Source: a virus. From it: DNA of 64,000 nt. A program made the position numbers and the translations under genes. Shown piece after piece: positions 9,133-17,101 of the stretch (positions within the stretch are counted from its first letter, which is position 1; each line of letters begins with the position of its first letter). Under the pieces are notes generated by a model. That model was not told the DNA's origin and ran no database searches. It was given only the letters and a program-made list of their open reading frames with translations. The DNA is taken from the IMG/VR virus record IMGVR_UViG_3300040856_003015, positions 1-64,000 of that record. One strand, given 5' to 3'.

Positions 9133-10509
9133 TCAAAATTTAAATCCCTCAAATGTTTTTTTATGTTTTGATTCCATACGATCATACTCCACATCTTCTG
9201 TTGTGTCAACTGAAGAACTATTTTCAGATTGATCGCAATCGTATAATCTCATCTTTGACCTATCGATTCCCAAGATAAATCTTTTGTACACGGTTAGGTC
9301 ATTATACCTATTTTTTAATTGTTTAACTAAAATTTGACCACGCTCATCTAATTCTTCCGTACTGATCAAAGCAAACATTAAGTCTGCAGTTGCAGGCAAT
9401 CCAAAACTTTCAGATGTATCTGTTAATTCAACATCGGAAGAACCATACCCAGATCTTGTTGTTTGTGTTGCCGACACAATTGGAACATTTGTTTCTACGG
9501 CAAGTCCACGCAACTCTTCAGCAATCGCTTTGACAAACGTATATGAATTTATATTACTACCTTTATACCTACTTGATGCGCAAATATTTAAGTAATCAAT
9601 AAAAATCATATCTGGTTTAAATCTCTTCTTTAAAAAAAGTTCATTAAGTAAAGATTTAAAGTGTTCTGCATGTGCTGAAGCAGTTGGATACTCTTTGATT
9701 ATTAATGATCCTTGTGTTTTCTTGGTCAATGTATTTACTTTACTTTCAAAAATAGATTTTGGCAAATTTGTTATATCCTGTATAGGAACATCTAAAAGAT
9801 TGGCATCAATTCTTTCGGCAATCCGTTCTTCTGCCATTTCTAAAGTTATATAAAGAACATTTTTACCTTGAAGCAAAACTGAACTTGCTAGATGGCACAT
9901 GAAGAGAGATTTACCGACACCAGTTCCTGCAAGAGCAACATTTAGTGTTTTATTTGGGAGTCCTCCCTTAGTTATTTTATTGAAGTATTCTAAATCAAAT
10001 GGTATTTTATCTTCCTTTTTGTGATAACTTTCATATCTAGACTCAGAATCAAGGAAATAATCATGACCAATATGATCATCAAAACTTACGGATAATGCTT
10101 CCTGAAGAATAGAGGGAATGGCATCTCTTCCCTTATCTTCAGAATTTCCATCTGCAATATGAATTGCTTCCATAAGAGCTAAATATATTGCTCTTTCTTT
10201 GCACCATTTTTCTGTAGTTCCGACTAACCATTCGATTTCTGAACTAACATATTCCAAACATTCAATAATATGAACAGATTGTTTATATGTCTCTTCAGAA
10301 ATATCAGTACGCTTTTCAAGTTCAATAATAATTACATCTTTATTGATTACACTTTTATATTTTTGTGTAAATCTGTATATTTCCTGGAATATTATTCTTT
10401 TAGATAAATCTTCAAAATATTCATTTTTTATAAATGGGATTACCCTTTTAACATATTCCTCATTAAAAATTAAATTTGAAAGAATTAAAAATTCTACTTT
10501 ATCCATCAT
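9133..10509 (-). CDS. gp41: Replicative DnaB-like helicase, intein-free
   Basis: AGTGVGKS Walker A, YITLEMAEE, IDYLNI, SATQTTRSG, QLKNRY. Confidence 0.96.
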   Translation of the reverse strand: MMDKVEFLILSNLIFNEEYVKRVIPFIKNEYFEDLSKRIIFQEIYRFTQKYKSVINKDVIIIELEKRTDISEETYKQSVHIIECLEYVSSEIEWLVGTTEKWCKERAIYLALMEAIHIADGNSEDKGRDAIPSILQEALSVSFDDHIGHDYFLDSESRYESYHKKEDKIPFDLEYFNKITKGGLPNKTLNVALAGTGVGKSLFMCHLASSVLLQGKNVLYITLEMAEERIAERIDANLLDVPIQDITNLPKSIFESKVNTLTKKTQGSLIIKEYPTASAHAEHFKSLLNELFLKKRFKPDMIFIDYLNICASSRYKGSNINSYTFVKAIAEELRGLAVETNVPIVSATQTTRSGYGSSDVELTDTSESFGLPATADLMFALISTEELDERGQILVKQLKNRYNDLTVYKRFILGIDRSKMRLYDCDQSENSSSVDTTEDVEYDRMESKHKKTFEGFKF

Positions 10510-11066
10510 TTATAGTGCAAATATGTACTTAATATATACTTGGGATTACTTCTAGGAGAATTTCCTCGATGGGGAAACAACCATAGAGGGGGAAAGACTA
10601 ATAATTTTCCACTTTCTGGTTTTATTACTAAGTCCAAAAATTCAGTTTCCCCACCTTCATTAACATCATTTAAATACCACATAAAAGACAGAAACCTTAT
10701 CGAGGATGAAGAATCTGTAACATCAACGTGAGTATCAAAGACATCGTTTCCGTTATTCTGATATTTTTTTATTCTAAATTGCTCAAATGCATTTTTTTCT
10801 GGGAAACATCTTTTATCAATAAACTTATAATACTTTTCTTTATAATCTAAAGTTTTTCTAATAAGAGTATTATGAATTTTTTCAACATCCTCTGATAACT
10901 TTGAATTTTGAGTTAAATTTAGTTGAGTAAAATTTGGTTTTCTATCATTATCAATGCGTTCATGAAGTTCTTCATTTTCATCAAAAAAATTTATTAAAAA
11001 TTTACAAACATCAGAACTCAAATTATTCTTTTCTATGTGTATAAAATCATTTAATTCAACTACCAT
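10506..11066 (-). CDS. 2OG-Fe(II) oxygenase
   Basis: FDTHVD, WYLNDVNEGGETEF, FPPLWLFPHRG..P...KYI facial-triad motifs. Confidence 0.88.
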   Translation of the reverse strand: MVVELNDFIHIEKNNLSSDVCKFLINFFDENEELHERIDNDRKPNFTQLNLTQNSKLSEDVEKIHNTLIRKTLDYKEKYYKFIDKRCFPEKNAFEQFRIKKYQNNGNDVFDTHVDVTDSSSSIRFLSFMWYLNDVNEGGETEFLDLVIKPESGKLLVFPPLWLFPHRGNSPRSNPKYILSTYLHYK

Positions 11067-11967
11067 AACTAAACTCTACTCTAGCGATTTCATCAAGTTT
11101 TTGCATCACTTCATCAGTGAAATATACTTCAGGATCTTTTAGGATTTGTTTTGCGTAAATCTTTTTACCATTCATTTCATAACGACCTGCTACATTTTTC
11201 CAAAGTCCGCCAATCTCACCGAGTTCAAGAAGACCATAATATCTATCAAGACCACGCTCATCATAATAAAGACGAATTTCAACTTCTTTATTCTCCTTGC
11301 TCAAGCGCGACTTGTGAGTCTTTGCCTTGATAAGATTGCCGACGACTTCTGTTCCATCCTTCTCTTTCTTTTTGCTGAGATAGATGATTGTACTTGCTGC
11401 ATACTTGAGACCAGAATTGTGAGACACGACACCATTACCAAGAATATAATGATGTTCTCCTTCAACTGTGATGTCATAAACATCCTCAGTCTTTATTTTC
11501 TTGATAGACTTTACAATTCGTTCCATGCCACCTCTTATACATATAGATTTGATAGTATCTGAAGGTAATAACTCAGTAACGGATTTCCATTCATAACCAT
11601 CTCCAGTATCTACTAAAAACTTATGTTCGCCAGAACATCTAATAGTTTCTCCATCTTCCAATTCCAATTCATAAACATCTTTATCGGTGAAATGGAAAGT
11701 GTCAGTAACTGATGAATAACCAAACATAGTTCTCACTTTGTCACCAACTTGAATAGATTCAATAGGAATAGAACCATTTTCTGTTTGTATCTTAGTTCCC
11801 GCAACTAAACAACCCCCACCCATTTCCTTTGTAGGGACATAAGAGTTATGAGAAAGTGTCCCATCTTCAAAAATATAGTGATGAGCATCTTCTATTTCGA
11901 TATCATAAACATTAGTATTCTTTTTTTTAATTTTTTCAATTTTTTTAATTTTGATGCCAATAGTCAT
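11056..11967 (-). CDS. uvsX: UvsX C-terminal precursor: IntC + 11-aa extein + mini-intein + UvsX C-terminal extein
   Basis: IntC ending SHN, [11 protein letters not shown], second intein C...SHN, then [23 protein letters not shown] SD upstream. Confidence 0.93.
   Translation of the reverse strand: [303 protein letters not shown]
11416..11811 (-). mobile_element. Contiguous mini-intein (132 aa), no endonuclease
   Basis: Block A CLVAGTKI, block B RCSGEH, block F VYDITV, block G SHN followed by Ser. Confidence 0.93.
11845..11967 (-). mobile_element. Split intein C-fragment (41 aa)
   Basis: Basic N-terminus [11 protein letters not shown], block F VYDIEI, block G SHN followed by Ser. Confidence 0.92.
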
Positions 11968-11983
11968 TTGAAATTTACTCCGT

Positions 11984-11991
11984 TATAAATA
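11984..11991 (+). promoter_or_regulatory. T4-type late promoter for the antisense HNH gene
   Basis: TATAAATA on + strand 28 nt before ATG 12020. Confidence 0.7.
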
Positions 11992-12019
11992 GTTATAATC
12001 ATACCTATTATGTAATAGA

Positions 12020-12655
12020 ATGAAGCACATACATCATATTATACCACGACATATAGGTGGGTCTGATGACCCAAGCAATTTAATAGAATTAACAATAGAA
12101 GAACACGCAAAAGCACATTTTGATCTCTGGAAGAAGTTTGGTCGCATAGAAGATAAAATTGCTTGGGAGTGTTTATCTGGAAGAAATCTTTCAGAAGAAG
12201 AAAGAATTATACTATCAAAATCTGGATTTGAAAAGTTTTTACTAGATGAAAGTAAAGTCACAAAATGGAAAAATAAAATATCAAATACATTAACTGGAAA
12301 AATTCAATCTGAAGAAACTAAAATAAAAAGATCAAACTCACTAAAATTAGCATATAAAGAAGGTAGAAAAAAAGTTATTGTTAATTCAGATGATGCTAGA
12401 AGAAGATATTATGAAAATAATATATCTCAATTAATGGCAGAAGGTAGAAAAAAATCTCAAGAGTGGAAGAACTCTGTAACTTCAGAAGAATATAAAATTA
12501 AAAAAACTTTATCAGACCCAAGATCTAAAAAAGTATCTGTAGATGGAATAGTTTATAATTCAATTAGAGAAGCATCTAAAAAAACAAATATAAATTATTC
12601 CAAACTAAGAAATGTACTAATTTCCAATATTAATAATAATATCTTCTTCTGTTAA
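12020..12655 (+). CDS. Free-standing HNH homing endonuclease with NUMOD3/NUMOD1-like tails
   Basis: HHIIPRHIGGSDDPSNLIELTIEEHAKAH; GKIQSEETKIKRS; VDGIVYNSIREASK; lies between the split intein halves. Confidence 0.9.
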   Translation: MKHIHHIIPRHIGGSDDPSNLIELTIEEHAKAHFDLWKKFGRIEDKIAWECLSGRNLSEEERIILSKSGFEKFLLDESKVTKWKNKISNTLTGKIQSEETKIKRSNSLKLAYKEGRKKVIVNSDDARRRYYENNISQLMAEGRKKSQEWKNSVTSEEYKIKKTLSDPRSKKVSVDGIVYNSIREASKKTNINYSKLRNVLISNINNNIFFC

Positions 12656-13498
12656 TTCAGAAACTTTTTTCCACTCACCCTCTTGAGTCATTAATTTATG
12701 CTCTCCTGTTAATTTATAAATCGACCCATTTTCAAGTTCAACTTCATAATATTCATCAAACGAATATCTATAAGTATTGATGACTTTTTTGGGTCCGACC
12801 ATAGTATTCACATAATCTCCAACTTCAATTTCTGAAATATCAATATTTCCATTTGGAGTTTTAATCTTGGTTCCTTTAAGAGCACATCCGATAACATCGT
12901 AAGTGTGGTTTGTTACTAAAAGTGGAATGTTTGCTTGTCCCAGTTTCAGAGTAAGCATACGGAATGCTCCTTTGACAAGTTGAGATTTGGTCATGTCCCT
13001 GACTTGCTTATCATCTAAAGCATCACGAATCTCTTTCTCTGTGGAAAGCATACCTAAAGAGTCTAGCACAAACATACAGGGTTTGCGATCCTCTACAGGT
13101 TTTTTTAAGTATATGTCTACTGCCTGTAATGCTTTCTGTCTAAACTGTTCAATCGTAACAACATTGACAACAACCAATCGCTCTAAGTCAATGCCACGAC
13201 TTGCAAGAAGAGATTTGTTAACTGCTGCCTCAGTGTCAAAGTACAAACAGTAACCGTCAGGATTACTATCCAAAAAATTCTTAACCACAGCGAGACTAAA
13301 GAAAGTCTTCCCAGTAGAAGACTCACCAGCAATGGCAGTAATCTTATTCCCAGAAACACCACCAAATATGCTACCTGAGACCAGTGAATTAAAGATGTAA
13401 GAACCCGTGTCCACAAAGGTTTCGGTGTCGTCGATGTCTGATGCGAGTTGGGTGTAGTCATCTCCAATCTCTTTTACAATTTCTTTTAAAAAATCCAT
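12617..13498 (-). CDS. uvsX: UvsX (RecA-like) N-terminal precursor fused to IntN
   Basis: AGESSTGKT Walker A, YFDTE, VLDSLG Walker B, [9 protein letters not shown] then intein Cys; start taken at MDFLKE. Confidence 0.95.
   Translation of the reverse strand: [293 protein letters not shown]
12620..12886 (-). mobile_element. Split intein N-fragment (89 aa)
   Basis: Block A CALKGTKI, block B KLTGEH, acidic [14 protein letters not shown], then stop with no block F/G. Confidence 0.92.
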
Positions 13499-13616
13499 TT
13501 TTTTGTTTCTGGTTAAATTTAAACGACCAAAGTTTAGAGTAGAGATCCTTTTCATTTGTATTTTTAAGGATCTCTATAATTTTATCCAATTCTTTTTCAG
13601 TTATTGGAACTTCCAT
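13458..13616 (-). CDS. Small hypothetical protein
   Basis: MEVPITEKELDKIIEILK...LYSKLWSFKFN fills the gp43-uvsX gap. Confidence 0.55.
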   Translation of the reverse strand: MEVPITEKELDKIIEILKNTNEKDLYSKLWSFKFNQKQKNGFFKRNCKRDWR

Positions 13617-13623
13617 AATACTA

Positions 13624-14970
13624 TCAAATGAAAAATGAATCAAGTGTTGATTTTTTTTCAGATGACCAACCAATAGCATTCAAAATAATTTTTAATGGTT
13701 CCAAGAATCCCTTTTCAAACTGAGTATCGTAATCAATATATTGTTTCAACCCAAGTTCTTTGGGAAACTCTTGAATGAAAGAAATAACATTTTCATATAT
13801 TGGATTTGGTTTTTTTAAATAACAAAATTTAAGTTTTTCACCATTTTTAATTAAAGAATATTTTCCTGTAAGTTTATTAAGTTTAATATAATGATTAAAC
13901 AATAATGCACCTCTGGCATGAATTGGAGTTCCTTTATTATAAATTGAATTGTATGATTGATGTTTTACAACATTAGAAACAGATCTTGGGAAAGAAATTT
14001 CTTCTGGTGGAAGTTTTGAAAATGAACTTCTACAACTATCAATATATTTTATAACATCATCTTCAGACCCGTCCATTAAAATTTTAAATGCTTCCTTAAG
14101 CATTTTTCTACATGAAGATGGAGTTGACGATTTAATTGCTTCAATTCCTTTAATTTTTAATTTGGTTTCTTTGTATCTAACCCCTTCACTATCCCACACA
14201 CTTAGAATATATCTCTTTTTTGCAGTCCAAATCCCACGTTCAGAAATACACTCTCTTTTCATGACCATCTTCTGATCATAAGCATTGACATACTTTGCCA
14301 ACTCCTGATAAGAAGACTCAATATATTTTTCAATTTTTTCTTTACAAATTTTATCTAAAAAATCAACAATCTTTTCTGGACTTTTTTCTTTTCCATCAAA
14401 TATAACATCAACCAAAGGACCCATATTAATATAAAGAGAATCAGTATCTGATGCAATTACATAATCAATGTCATTGGTTTTTAAAATGCTATTTAAATAA
14501 GAGTTCATCTTATTCATAATCCATCTAATTGAGACTTGACCAGAATATGTAATGGCTTCGGCAATATCTAGTTTGTAATACCTAAAGTACTGATTGCCAC
14601 AAGCGCCAAATGCAGAATTGAGTTGGATCTTGCGGGCCATCTGAATGTTATTGCATCTTGCAATCTCCTTCTCCAATGCCTTAGTCGGAGTTTTTTCATA
14701 ATCTTGTTTTGCAATAAGCATCTTCTTCTTGTAGATGGTGCGATCCTTATAAATCTTCTCCATCAGTTCTGGCAGCATACCTTTCACCCTATGATAGAGT
14801 GCTCCATTCGCAGTCATAGTGAGATTTACCTTTTGCAAAGGTTCCAAATCCAACTCTTGTTTGATAAGTTTATCTACATTCACCTTTACGGAAAGTTCTC
14901 TTACCTGTTTAAGTGCCTCAAGTTCTTCTACAATTTCCTCACGGGACATTTTACGAACATCTTTCCACAT
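13624..14970 (-). CDS. gp43: DNA polymerase family B, C-terminal half (fingers/palm/thumb) with extra N-terminal helix
   Basis: KIQLNSAFG motif B, ASDTDS motif C, KKRY, KGIEAIKSSTP; ATG at 14970 follows GGAG SD and HNH stop (TGA-A-ATG). Confidence 0.93.
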   Translation of the reverse strand: MWKDVRKMSREEIVEELEALKQVRELSVKVNVDKLIKQELDLEPLQKVNLTMTANGALYHRVKGMLPELMEKIYKDRTIYKKKMLIAKQDYEKTPTKALEKEIARCNNIQMARKIQLNSAFGACGNQYFRYYKLDIAEAITYSGQVSIRWIMNKMNSYLNSILKTNDIDYVIASDTDSLYINMGPLVDVIFDGKEKSPEKIVDFLDKICKEKIEKYIESSYQELAKYVNAYDQKMVMKRECISERGIWTAKKRYILSVWDSEGVRYKETKLKIKGIEAIKSSTPSSCRKMLKEAFKILMDGSEDDVIKYIDSCRSSFSKLPPEEISFPRSVSNVVKHQSYNSIYNKGTPIHARGALLFNHYIKLNKLTGKYSLIKNGEKLKFCYLKKPNPIYENVISFIQEFPKELGLKQYIDYDTQFEKGFLEPLKIILNAIGWSSEKKSTLDSFFI

Positions 14971-14971
14971 T

Positions 14972-15538
14972 TCAATTCTCCATAATTTTAGTATGCTTTT
15001 TGCGGTTTTCACTCATAGTAATAATCTGCAAGTTGTCTTCGTGATGCTTTCCTCCTTTTGAAATTGGAATTATGTGGTCCACTTCGTGAGGAATACCAGT
15101 TTCTTCTGTTAATCGTTTTGCTTCACAATAAATCTTATTTATTTTTTGTTGATTTGCAGTTTCATCAAAAGCATCTCTTATCCTACATCTTCTGCGAGCA
15201 GCAATAGAGTTTAAAACTGCCCTCTTATGCTCTTTACCCAAATATCTAAATTTAGAAGAACAAGAATGAGAACAAAATTGAAGTTTCCATTTCTCACTTG
15301 TTGCTCTAAATCTGCTTACAATAAATGGAGAACCGCAATTTTGACAGTAAAGAGTTTCCTTTCTCTCTTTATTTTTATTCTCCAAATGTTTAGGTTTTTG
15401 GAGTCCATACTTTCGTATTTTCTGCTTAATAAGAGGGTCGGAGCATCCAAAAAAATCAGCACACTCTTTACGACTTTTGTTTTCAAGAATATAAAGTTGA
15501 TGTAGTTGTTCTTTAGTTATGTTGAATTTTGGTTGCAT
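14972..15538 (-). CDS. HNH homing endonuclease (HTH + Zn finger + HNH) inserted in gp43
   Basis: HTH-like N-terminus, CQNC...FCSHSC, HEVDHIIPISKGGKHHEDNLQIITMSENRKK. Confidence 0.9.
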   Translation of the reverse strand: MQPKFNITKEQLHQLYILENKSRKECADFFGCSDPLIKQKIRKYGLQKPKHLENKNKERKETLYCQNCGSPFIVSRFRATSEKWKLQFCSHSCSSKFRYLGKEHKRAVLNSIAARRRCRIRDAFDETANQQKINKIYCEAKRLTEETGIPHEVDHIIPISKGGKHHEDNLQIITMSENRKKHTKIMEN

Positions 15539-15549
15539 TTGTTTTATTG

Positions 15550-15582
15550 TATCCGCACATTATTATTTATAAGATGTGGATA
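15550..15582 (-). promoter_or_regulatory. Late promoter in hairpin loop upstream of HNH
   Basis: TATCCACAT-ct-TATAAATA-ata-ATGT(GC)GGATA. Confidence 0.65.
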
Positions 15583-15584
15583 TT

Positions 15585-16856
15585 CTACAACATTTTCTCC
15601 AATTCTGCAATACGATTATTAAGTTCGTGCTTTTCAACAAGTGTTTCTGGTGAAACTGAATATTGCATAATAAGATGGGGGTATAGAGAATTAAGGTCAA
15701 AACTAACAACCCATTCATATACTCCAGGAATAGGTTCCTTTACGTATGCTCCACCAAATTTCTCACTTTTACTTGTTGATTTTTTTGGTGGTATAACAAT
15801 ATTTTTTTTCTTAAGATAATTATATATAATCGTATCCCACATTCTGACCTGAGAAAAAATGTCGGCATAGTTAACCTTAGCGTCATAAGCCATAGTGATT
15901 GCCAATTCAATCAACTTCATTTTATCTTCAAGACGGTCAACAAGTTCTACGTCAATAATATTATATTCGACAAATTTTTGCCAACCTTTTTTATAAAAAT
16001 CTTGAAAGGTTTCGAACTCGGAGTGATCTAGTTTTTTCTGACCCAACTCAACATTAGCAATATGATCTAAACGATATGATTCTTGGGCAGTATACGTAAA
16101 TTTTTTGTAAAGATCCAAATAATCTAACTGAGTAATTCCACCAACATCAAAAGTTATTTGTTGATTATTATTTACAAATACTTCCCTCTCAGTAATAAGT
16201 CCCCATGGAGAAAACCGTTTCATTCTTTTTTTTCCAAAAATTTTATCAAGTCGTCCACAAATATATGGGACATCATAAAACTGAATATTCCACCCAGTAA
16301 TTACTTCTGGAGTATTATTTTCCCAATACGCAATAAAAGAATTTAACAGATCATACTCAGAGTTACACAAAATATAATTAACATTTTTTTGTTTATTATT
16401 AAATGGTTTTGTCCCCCATGTAGTTATTTCTTTAGTTGTATAGTCTTGAATAGTTATTAGAAGAATTTCTTCATCACAGTTTTTAGGATCTGGAAACCCA
16501 TTTTCTGAAGCGACTTCAATATCAAGAGTTACTAATTTAATTTTTGAGATATCAAACTTAATTTCATCTTCTGGGTATTTGTCCGAGATATATTGGTAAA
16601 TAAATCTCTCATTACCATATACTTCAAATCCATCAACATCTTCATATTTTTTATAAAACTCCCTACAATCTTTTACTGTACCTGGTTTTATTTCTTCTAC
16701 ATACTTTCCATCAAGAGTTTTATATTTTGTTTTTTTATTTGAATTCACATATAATGTTGGAAAGTATTCTTCCTTAAACATTACATGTTGACCATCATGA
16801 TATCCACGGACAAGAAACTTGTTTCCGACCATTTGGATGTTAGTATAAAACTTCAT
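15585..16856 (-). CDS. gp43: DNA polymerase family B, N-terminal half (exonuclease + motif A) with extra C-terminal helix
   Basis: LDIEV ExoI, GWNIQFYD ExoII, YNIIDV ExoIII, SFDLNSLYPHLIMQY motif A, ends SPETL-VEKHELNNRIAELEKML*. Confidence 0.94.
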   Translation of the reverse strand: MKFYTNIQMVGNKFLVRGYHDGQHVMFKEEYFPTLYVNSNKKTKYKTLDGKYVEEIKPGTVKDCREFYKKYEDVDGFEVYGNERFIYQYISDKYPEDEIKFDISKIKLVTLDIEVASENGFPDPKNCDEEILLITIQDYTTKEITTWGTKPFNNKQKNVNYILCNSEYDLLNSFIAYWENNTPEVITGWNIQFYDVPYICGRLDKIFGKKRMKRFSPWGLITEREVFVNNNQQITFDVGGITQLDYLDLYKKFTYTAQESYRLDHIANVELGQKKLDHSEFETFQDFYKKGWQKFVEYNIIDVELVDRLEDKMKLIELAITMAYDAKVNYADIFSQVRMWDTIIYNYLKKKNIVIPPKKSTSKSEKFGGAYVKEPIPGVYEWVVSFDLNSLYPHLIMQYSVSPETLVEKHELNNRIAELEKML

Positions 16857-17101
16857 TTTGTAAGACTTTCGTACTTTTCAAGAATAGTGCTTTTAGGATC
16901 GCAAATAGTTACAATCTTGTCAGAATGTATCATAAAATTATCCTCAGATGAAAAATATCCCATCCATGATTCTAGTGTAAAATCTTTTTTGATTAAAAAT
17001 GGTTTTATTAACATACAGTCTGGTTCTCCCAACTGAGACTGTATTTCTTTTATTTCGCTTATTAAAATTTCTCCCGTAGATATTTTTAAAATTTTAATCA
17101 T
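16853..17101 (-). CDS. Conserved small hypothetical protein upstream of gp43
   Basis: LISEIKEI...GEPDC.LIKPF; stop overlaps gp43 start. Confidence 0.75.
   Translation of the reverse strand: MIKILKISTGEILISEIKEIQSQLGEPDCMLIKPFLIKKDFTLESWMGYFSSEDNFMIHSDKIVTICDPKSTILEKYESLTK

Follow-up and report, generated by a model that had tools for sequence, protein, structure and literature searches.

How can a phage make intact UvsX when the gene for this RecA-type protein is divided between two reading frames and interrupted twice within a few codons? The question is raised by a stretch of 64,000 nucleotides (nt), positions 1 to 64,000 of IMG/VR record IMGVR_UViG_3300040856_003015, which we call the window; the record as a whole is 74.9 kb long, derives from an uncultured marine T4-like cyanophage and is estimated to be 39% complete. 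On the minus strand of the window, uvsX consists of two open reading frames (ORFs), ORF-N (12617-13555) and ORF-C (11056-11967). We consider it probable that two related class 1 inteins occupy sites 11 codons apart in this gene, the first forming a trans-splicing cassette and the second being a split intein that has been re-fused into one piece. A sequence-only reading of this DNA had proposed that uvsX is fractured by a split intein and that whole UvsX would need trans-splicing, and this is supported on all sequence-level tests. The idea of a split does not extend to the second intein (11416-11811), which is contiguous; its descent from a split intein had gone unremarked in that reading.

Anatomy of the fractured gene and its restored product

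In ORF-N the probable translation start is M20 of the full-length frame (position 13498), which gives the 293-residue form seen in about 50 homologue clusters, in which the proteins start MDFL. This form joins extein 1 (12887..13498, minus strand), which is UvsX residues 1-204 with an intact Walker A motif and a PF00154 RecA match, to an N-terminal intein half, IntN1 (12620..12886, minus strand; stop codon 12617-12619). IntN1 is inserted at site 1, between G204 and S205. It begins CALKGTK with the catalytic Cys1, has TGEH as block B, and matches the Pfam families Intein_splicing and Hint_2. The description of an 89-residue acidic IntN following TNHTYDVIG was accurate, the net charge being -6.

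ORF-C is preceded by a GGAG Shine-Dalgarno sequence (11978..11981, minus strand) 10 nt before its ATG, and GGAG or AGGAG stands at this ribosome-binding position in all seven loci compared (7/7), despite a variable spacer. All of its parts lie on the minus strand. The ORF opens with the C-terminal intein half IntC1 (11845..11967; 41 residues), which has a K-rich N-terminal strand and ends TLSHN before Ser+1. IntC1 had been called basic, which is true of its first 19 residues (+6); the whole half has a net charge of 0. Then follow extein 2 (11812..11844), just 11 residues of the RecA L2-loop region (UvsX 205-215) lying between the two inteins; intein 2 (11416..11811), a contiguous mini-intein of 132 residues at site 2, between G215 and S216; and extein 3 (11059..11415; UvsX 216-334), which begins SGLKYAAST and ends at the stop codon at 11056-11058. 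Both inteins carry Cys1, T/SxxH, the terminal HN, and Ser+1.

When both inteins are removed, the exteins join into a continuous protein of 334 residues across the L2 region, as had been claimed. This protein aligns without a gap to the 334-residue UvsX of Synechococcus phage SynMITS9220M01 with 307 identical positions (92%), and the 75 residues spanning both junctions are the same in the two proteins. Its identity as UvsX is given by the PF00154 match, by a RecA fold that includes Walker A and the L2 region, and by its syntenic place between gp43 and gp41. With uvsX in two intein-flanked ORFs, intact UvsX requires protein trans-splicing. No second uvsX and no further intein were found elsewhere in the 74.9-kb record, and the purifying selection described below makes decay of the halves unlikely.

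Origin of the contiguous intein at site 2

In intein 2, blocks A, B, F, and G all lie on one ORF, and the fold is of the HINT type. The intein starts CLVAGTK with Cys1, has SGEH as block B, ends VVSHN before Ser+1, and shares 44% identity with intein 1 in its N part and 51% in its C part. An AlphaFold2 (AF2) model of it has a predicted local distance difference test score (pLDDT) of 93.5, with a sole dip at residues 91-100, where the linker lies, and Foldseek matches it best to the fused gp41-1 intein 6QAZ (template modeling [TM] score 0.86).

The nearest relatives of intein 2 are not contiguous. In about 45 clusters of 305-310-residue proteins, UvsX-N is followed by the 11 residues and then by an IntN2 that ends DTIKSM before a stop codon, and matching proteins were found in which IntC2, beginning MERIV, precedes UvsX-C. 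(Below, L005-L036 denote compared IMG/VR contigs or loci and P0026-P0137 database proteins.) In 20 of the 22 IMG/VR loci L015-L036, IntN2 is followed by a sense-strand HNH-NUMOD3 gene of 222-224 residues with a zinc finger, the last ~35-41 nt of which overlap the start of IntC2; the remaining two loci end inside the nuclease gene. The DNA of intein 2 is identical to that of L018 and L015 at 269 of 269 nt in the N part and at 126 of 126 nt in the linker and C part. The sole difference between the window and this split form is the absence of 661 nt (~661-662 nt, and 661 by inspection of the junction). The fusion junction reads AAATCTAT directly followed by ATGTATAAGAGGTGGCATGG, with no repeat.

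What lies at the junction records the direction of the change. The linker, CIRGG (11527..11541, minus strand), sits at the canonical split site; its codons were formerly the leader of the IntC2 gene, with the ribosome-binding site, and are now translated. The upstream frame of P0112 shows CIRGG as just such a translated leader. In frame +2 relative to the intein, positions 11486..11542 (minus strand) encode MYKRWHGTNCKVYQENKD and a stop, which are the last 18 codons of the site 2 HNH gene, surviving out of frame within intein 2. The nuclease gene has been lost and its 3' tail retained. Within the tail, R-W-H-x-x-N-C-K forms the second half of a CxxC...HxxxC finger and is invariant in free-standing HNH homologues, which stand between nrd genes, with no intein, in T4-like phages of Klebsiella and Proteus. 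Because the motif is invariant in these intein-free homologues, the tail belongs by origin to the nuclease gene, and a contiguous intein that contains it must therefore descend from a split, nuclease-bearing locus. By its DNA, intein 2 is a naturally re-fused split intein. What is new in the window is a tandem second intein that was re-fused and still matches its split siblings at 100% identity.

The fused junction is real. Logan contigs cross it with neither difference nor gap, two of them from DNA runs (1834 and 1679 nt) and two from RNA-library (metatranscriptome) runs (318 and 530 nt). The whole 1.7-kb stretch is present in 14 DNA runs from 13 studies (estuary, seawater, and marine samples; 2020-2025), and the exact ORF-C protein occurs on 19 contigs (JGI and ENA). 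Fused forms also exist beyond this allele. P0131, from another source, is a diverged fused variant with the linker CTRGG and a different extein 3, and P0132 is a one-piece UvsX of 464 residues in which site 1 is empty and the fused intein 2 has a shorter linker, IKS-I-GG-MDQIV; both keep the motifs. When loci were sought with P0132 and the more distant P0101, most hits had no intein or matched in the exteins only, and contiguous site 2 DNA was not found again.

Recurrence, selection, and mobility of the site 1 cassette

The layout at site 1 is far from unique to this phage. Proteins of 293 residues that combine UvsX-N with IntN1 form about 50 clusters (at 90% identity) among marine metagenome proteins searched with the IntN1 region, down to 53% identity, and the layout itself is present in at least seven IMG/VR contigs (L005-L007 and L009-L012). 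An opposite-strand HNH gene of 211 residues with a 39-nt overlap recurs in L005-L007, L009, L010, and L012; in L011, the most distant locus, the HNH protein has 217 residues and its gene does not overlap, and in L008 the gene is gone, leaving a 57-bp spacer in a uvsX that is still split. Among cultured phages, none of 465 records (0/465) has the site 1 insertion, the exteins alone matching, and we found no description of a site 1 uvsX cassette in the literature searched.

Selection was assessed by Nei-Gojobori counts between the window and five loci. The ratio of nonsynonymous to synonymous substitution rates (dN/dS) is 0.10-0.13 for IntN1, 0.09-0.14 for IntC1, and 0.16-0.32 for the HNH gene, and exteins and intein halves across divergent alleles range from 0.06 to 0.14; against L011, IntC1 gives 0.26 and the dS of IntN1 is saturated. 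Synonymous divergence itself differs sharply along the locus, with dS of 0.08-0.6 in the cassette versus 1.0-2.5 in the exteins. Compared with L005, for example, dS is 0.08 for the HNH gene and 0.25 for IntN1 versus 1.4-1.8 for the flanking exteins, and nucleotide identity is 90-97% in the cassette versus 78-82% in the exteins. As the dS of the cassette is far below that of the exteins, the cassette is mobile. The substitution patterns thus indicate purifying selection on the element and its transfer among uvsX backbones that have diverged from one another, as homing predicts. The site 1 cassette is a new and widespread member of the fractured-gene class; its host gene is new to the class, its nuclease is of the HNH type, and its orientation is inverted.

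DNA contigs contain two joints, one omitting 11844-12887 and one omitting 11417-13220, that might represent cassette-free alleles of the same samples; their short sides of 22-23 letters kept them from being counted. In one of them, from DNA run X12, position 11843 is joined to 12888, omitting exactly the site 1 cassette, with a short side of 23 letters.

Structure prediction pairs the two halves of intein 1. The interface score ipSAE is 0.87 for IntN1 with IntC1 versus 0.00 for the best control, the runs agree on at least 99% of contacts, and the partners have pLDDT of at least 88; 51 of 78 solved complexes attain the mark applied to this score, as do 2 of 108 mismatched pairs. The predicted pairing expresses likeness to solved split-intein complexes, possibly memorized, and is not independent proof of association.

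The antisense HNH gene

HNH-1 (12020..12655, plus strand) is a free-standing homing-endonuclease gene of 211 residues that runs antisense to uvsX, and its last 39 nt (12617-12655) overlap the end of IntN1, just as the sequence-only reading had described. The HNH motif occupies residues 3-33, at the very N terminus, and is followed by a NUMOD1/I-TevI-like DNA-binding tail; PF01844 scores above its cutoff, and the I-TevI_DNA-bd and NUMOD1 matches fall below theirs. The pattern HHIIP...N...EH...H is conserved across all homologues. In cultured phages the nearest relatives reach just 27-32% identity; they are "homing endonuclease" genes from Synechococcus phages and, among T-even phages, genes like mobE.

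Between the ATG codons of HNH-1 and ORF-C is a 52-nt gap, which holds TATAAATA (11984..11991, plus strand), back to back with the GGAG of ORF-C. This motif resembles a T4-type late promoter and lies 28 nt upstream of the HNH-1 ATG; it is retained, with unchanged spacing, in the close relatives L005, L009, and L010 and is missing from L011 and L012. Another copy, at 15564-15571, lies 26 nt upstream of the second HNH gene in the window. The motif claimed for the HNH gene is thus present, but its weight as a signal is another matter: the window holds 13 copies versus 13.4 expected by chance, and a single copy is not significant alone. Late expression of HNH-1 is plausible. The leader of HNH-1 holds a hairpin of no significance (-3 kcal/mol, z 0.3), and no copy of the intein-free target was found beside the promoter motif (local alignment score 9.0 versus a shuffle mean of 8.9). 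Contigs from RNA libraries cover the locus and carry neither strand nor level, so they are silent on antisense HNH transcription, by which uvsX expression had been suggested to be damped.

Proposed route to UvsX and competing explanations

We propose that the L2-loop region of uvsX was invaded at two sites by two related class 1 inteins and that the gene now yields two polypeptides, one of 293 residues (extein 1-IntN1) and one of 303 residues (IntC1-extein 2-intein 2-extein 3). IntN1 and IntC1 would associate and trans-splice extein 1 to extein 2, and intein 2 would excise in cis, joining extein 2 to extein 3, with a normal UvsX of 334 residues as the end product. HNH-1 most likely cuts the intein-free uvsX of co-infecting phages, whereupon repair would copy in the whole cassette. 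At site 2, the 661-nt deletion took out the body of the sense-strand HNH gene, and the former leader now connects IntN2 to IntC2 in one frame.

One competing account reverses the direction of change at site 2, taking intein 2 as an ancestral contiguous mini-intein, the "before" state from which the split forms arose by HNH insertion. It has precedent in the model of Dassa et al. (2009; PMC2677866), in which fractured genes derive from contiguous mini-inteins through endonuclease invasion, and more distant contiguous site 2 inteins are known (P0098, P0100, and P0103). We nevertheless regard it as improbable, since the linker and the start of IntC2 encode, in another frame, the last 18 HNH codons and stop, including a finger motif invariant in intein-free homologues, and an inserting HNH gene would need to have found that motif ready-made inside the intein. 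The same model has the initiator Met of the downstream gene supplied by the incoming element at its 3' end (PMC2677866), in agreement with an HNH tail at the start of IntC2. That the contiguous intein is instead an assembly artefact of a split-form population would fit the empty result of exact-junction scans of two contig collections, viral and metagenomic, which may not include the window's own record. Such an artefact is extremely unlikely, as the junction is bridged by Logan contigs of four runs, the exact protein recurs on 19 contigs and a diverged variant elsewhere, and there is no junction repeat to mislead an assembler.

The remaining alternatives accept the anatomy and dispute the product. 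The locus may be decaying, one or both inteins no longer splicing, and the phage doing without UvsX, or with fragments held together noncovalently, by relying on host RecA. T4 uvsX mutants are viable with a reduced burst size, the fused intein 2 is too young for measurable selection, and the adjoining gp43 polymerase gene is split without an intein, all of which speak for decay. Yet the catalytic residues are complete in both inteins, exteins and intein halves are under the purifying selection reported above, the allele is found in many samples, and the fusion persists with its motifs in P0131 and P0132; we judge decay unlikely. Finally, the two look-alike inteins, 44% and 51% identical in their N and C parts, could cross-react: IntN1 with the C part of intein 2 would skip the 11-residue extein, and in three-piece relatives, whose IntC1-11 residue-IntN2 middle pieces exist (P0133, P0136, and P0137), IntC1 and IntN2 would cyclize it, the products being functional. 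This has very little to recommend it, given that the 11 residues are conserved L2-loop sequence of UvsX, identical to that of intein-free alleles, and that intein 2, being in one piece in the window, should fold in cis. Mis-pairing of look-alike halves is conceivable in the three-piece alleles.

Several observations weigh against our explanation all the same. The very identity of intein 2 to its split siblings leaves no substitutions on which selection on this fusion could be measured, and judged from this allele alone the fusion could be dead. The late promoter is assigned from a motif that the window contains about as often as chance predicts. Many of the 14 DNA runs may represent the source sample or related campaigns and would then not be independent, and, the record being 39% complete, a uvsX copy outside it is conceivable.

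Trans-splicing at site 1 and re-fusion at site 2 nonetheless remain our preferred account, and they invite a broader, tentative idea that we think somewhat doubtful. Split and contiguous inteins may interconvert in the course of the homing cycle, loss of the nuclease re-fusing the halves into a working mini-intein with the 3' tail of the nuclease gene as linker. In a three-piece uvsX such re-fusion might be favored by a lower risk of mis-pairing; that mis-pairing is the reason is speculation.

Intein states and neighboring genes

The distribution of inteins marks the L2 region of cyanophage uvsX as an intein hot spot, to judge by the alleles compared. In cultured phages both sites are empty. 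Site 1 alone is split in L005 and others, and site 2 alone in L015 and others. Where both are split, UvsX is encoded in three pieces, and the middle ORF (IntC1-11 residues-IntN2; 142-159 residues in P0133, P0136, and P0137) supplies just 11 residues to the mature enzyme. Site 1 is split and site 2 fused in the window, in P0131, and in the more distant P0101; in P0132, site 2 is fused and is the only site occupied.

A third intein site is found in the Walker A loop, between GK and T, where a UvsX fragment starts with an intein C-piece of about 130 residues that ends HHN before TFFSL (L012:3191-4270; P0026, P0030, and P0067). The length of this C-piece implies a putative intein that is lopsidedly, that is atypically, split. 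It is combined with IntN1 or IntN2 at the other end of the fragment, leaving uvsX in at least three pieces there. Related features are seen in the gp41 helicase gene. In L015 (5915-7199), L020, L024, L025, and L029, the gp41 ORF ends NIALAG-CVHPETKVKIRFKKIS and is followed by an opposite-strand HNH gene of 222 residues; this end looks like a Walker A loop intein split after about 16 residues. In L028 (2435-3784), the N fragment of gp41 ends like the IntN of gp41-1 (KITLEDDKEIICSEEHLFPTQNGEVNIKGGLKEGMSLYVKE), and the classic gp41-1 fractured gene thus appears to co-occur with a split uvsX in one phage.

The gene order on the minus strand of the window, gp43, uvsX, 2OG-Fe(II) oxygenase, and gp41, matches that of cultured Synechococcus phages. 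Here gp43 (13624-16856) is fractured without inteins. Its N part (15585-16856, minus strand; 423 residues) is followed by the window's second HNH gene (14972-15538, minus strand, sense to gp43; 188 residues, with TATAAATA 26 nt upstream) and by its C part (13624-15012, minus strand; 462 residues), which has a GTG start and overlaps the HNH end by its first 41 nt. On the other side of uvsX, gp41 (9133-10509) is intact. The gene between uvsX and gp41 (10506-11066) differs among the close relatives L005-L036, the interval containing a 2OG-Fe(II) oxygenase of various types, an unrelated ORF of 290 residues (L018), or no gene, and nucleotide identity there falls to background. An Rfam scan of 10500-17000 detected no group I intron and no other RNA family, and scans for sigma-70 promoters and terminators gave chance-level results only.

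Implications

The class of fractured genes gains uvsX as a host gene, a nuclease of HNH type, and an arrangement on opposite strands. Sites 1 and 2 further provide two new natural split inteins, related to each other, which co-occur in the three-piece relatives and may already be orthogonal, a property of use in multi-fragment protein ligation. The window and its split siblings, which differ by 661 nt and are otherwise 100% identical, form a natural before-and-after pair. They document a step absent from the published model of split-intein evolution, and the split and fused forms of one intein can be compared directly at the bench. The pair also shows that a nuclease gene carrying the start signals of the downstream gene at its 3' end can still be lost.

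Comparison with known systems

The closest published parallels are the fractured gp41-1 to gp41-9, NrdA, NrdJ, IMPDH, and DnaE loci of ocean metagenomes (PMC2677866). As in those loci, a cyanophage-type replication or recombination gene is divided into two adjacent ORFs by mini-intein halves of about 90 and 40 residues that flank a free-standing endonuclease gene, an acidic IntN goes with a basic IntC strand, and variants without the endonuclease occur (gp41-7 there and L008 here). The differences begin with the host gene, as uvsX is listed in that work solely as an intact neighbor of fractured gp41, and with the presence here of a second intein 11 codons away. The nucleases found there were GIY-YIG and Vsr-like, with no HNH (PMC2677866), and the typical layout also differs, for our site 1 endonuclease gene is antisense and overlaps the end of IntN, not the start of IntC. 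The split siblings at site 2 do fit the typical layout, with a host-strand endonuclease gene whose 3' end overlaps the start of the IntC gene by 41 nt. To the published model, which has no step where endonuclease loss recreates a contiguous mini-intein, intein 2 adds that step.

Phage genes can also be fractured without inteins, as in nrdA of phage Aeh1, with the HNH gene mobE, and gp43 of Aeromonas phage 25 (PMC2677866, PMC2988022). In these cases, as here, a free-standing HNH or GIY-YIG gene splits an essential T4-like gene, and the HNH-NUMOD architecture of our nucleases resembles that of T-even mob genes. Products of the Aeh1 and phage 25 genes assemble noncovalently, whereas the break in uvsX is flanked by complete intein halves. 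The window's own gp43 is of the intein-less kind and resembles the known split gp43 of Aeromonas phages. The VidaL group (PDB 6VGV/6VGW) we take to comprise atypically split UvsX and T4Lh inteins of phage recombinase genes, split after about 13-25 residues. Unlike these, both inteins of the window are canonical and lie in the L2 region, and the lopsided relatives (P0026, P0067, and L012) are in the Walker A loop.

Among solved structures, the nearest relative of intein 2 is the engineered cis-splicing gp41-1 fusion (PDB 6QAZ and 6RIZ; phmmer E value 6e-13, TM score 0.86, root mean square deviation 1.6 Å, 30% identity). Both are cyanophage split inteins joined at the canonical split site. The gp41-1 fusion was made in the laboratory, whereas that of intein 2 is natural, produced by a deletion and bridged by a five-residue linker, CIRGG, that derives from a former leader.

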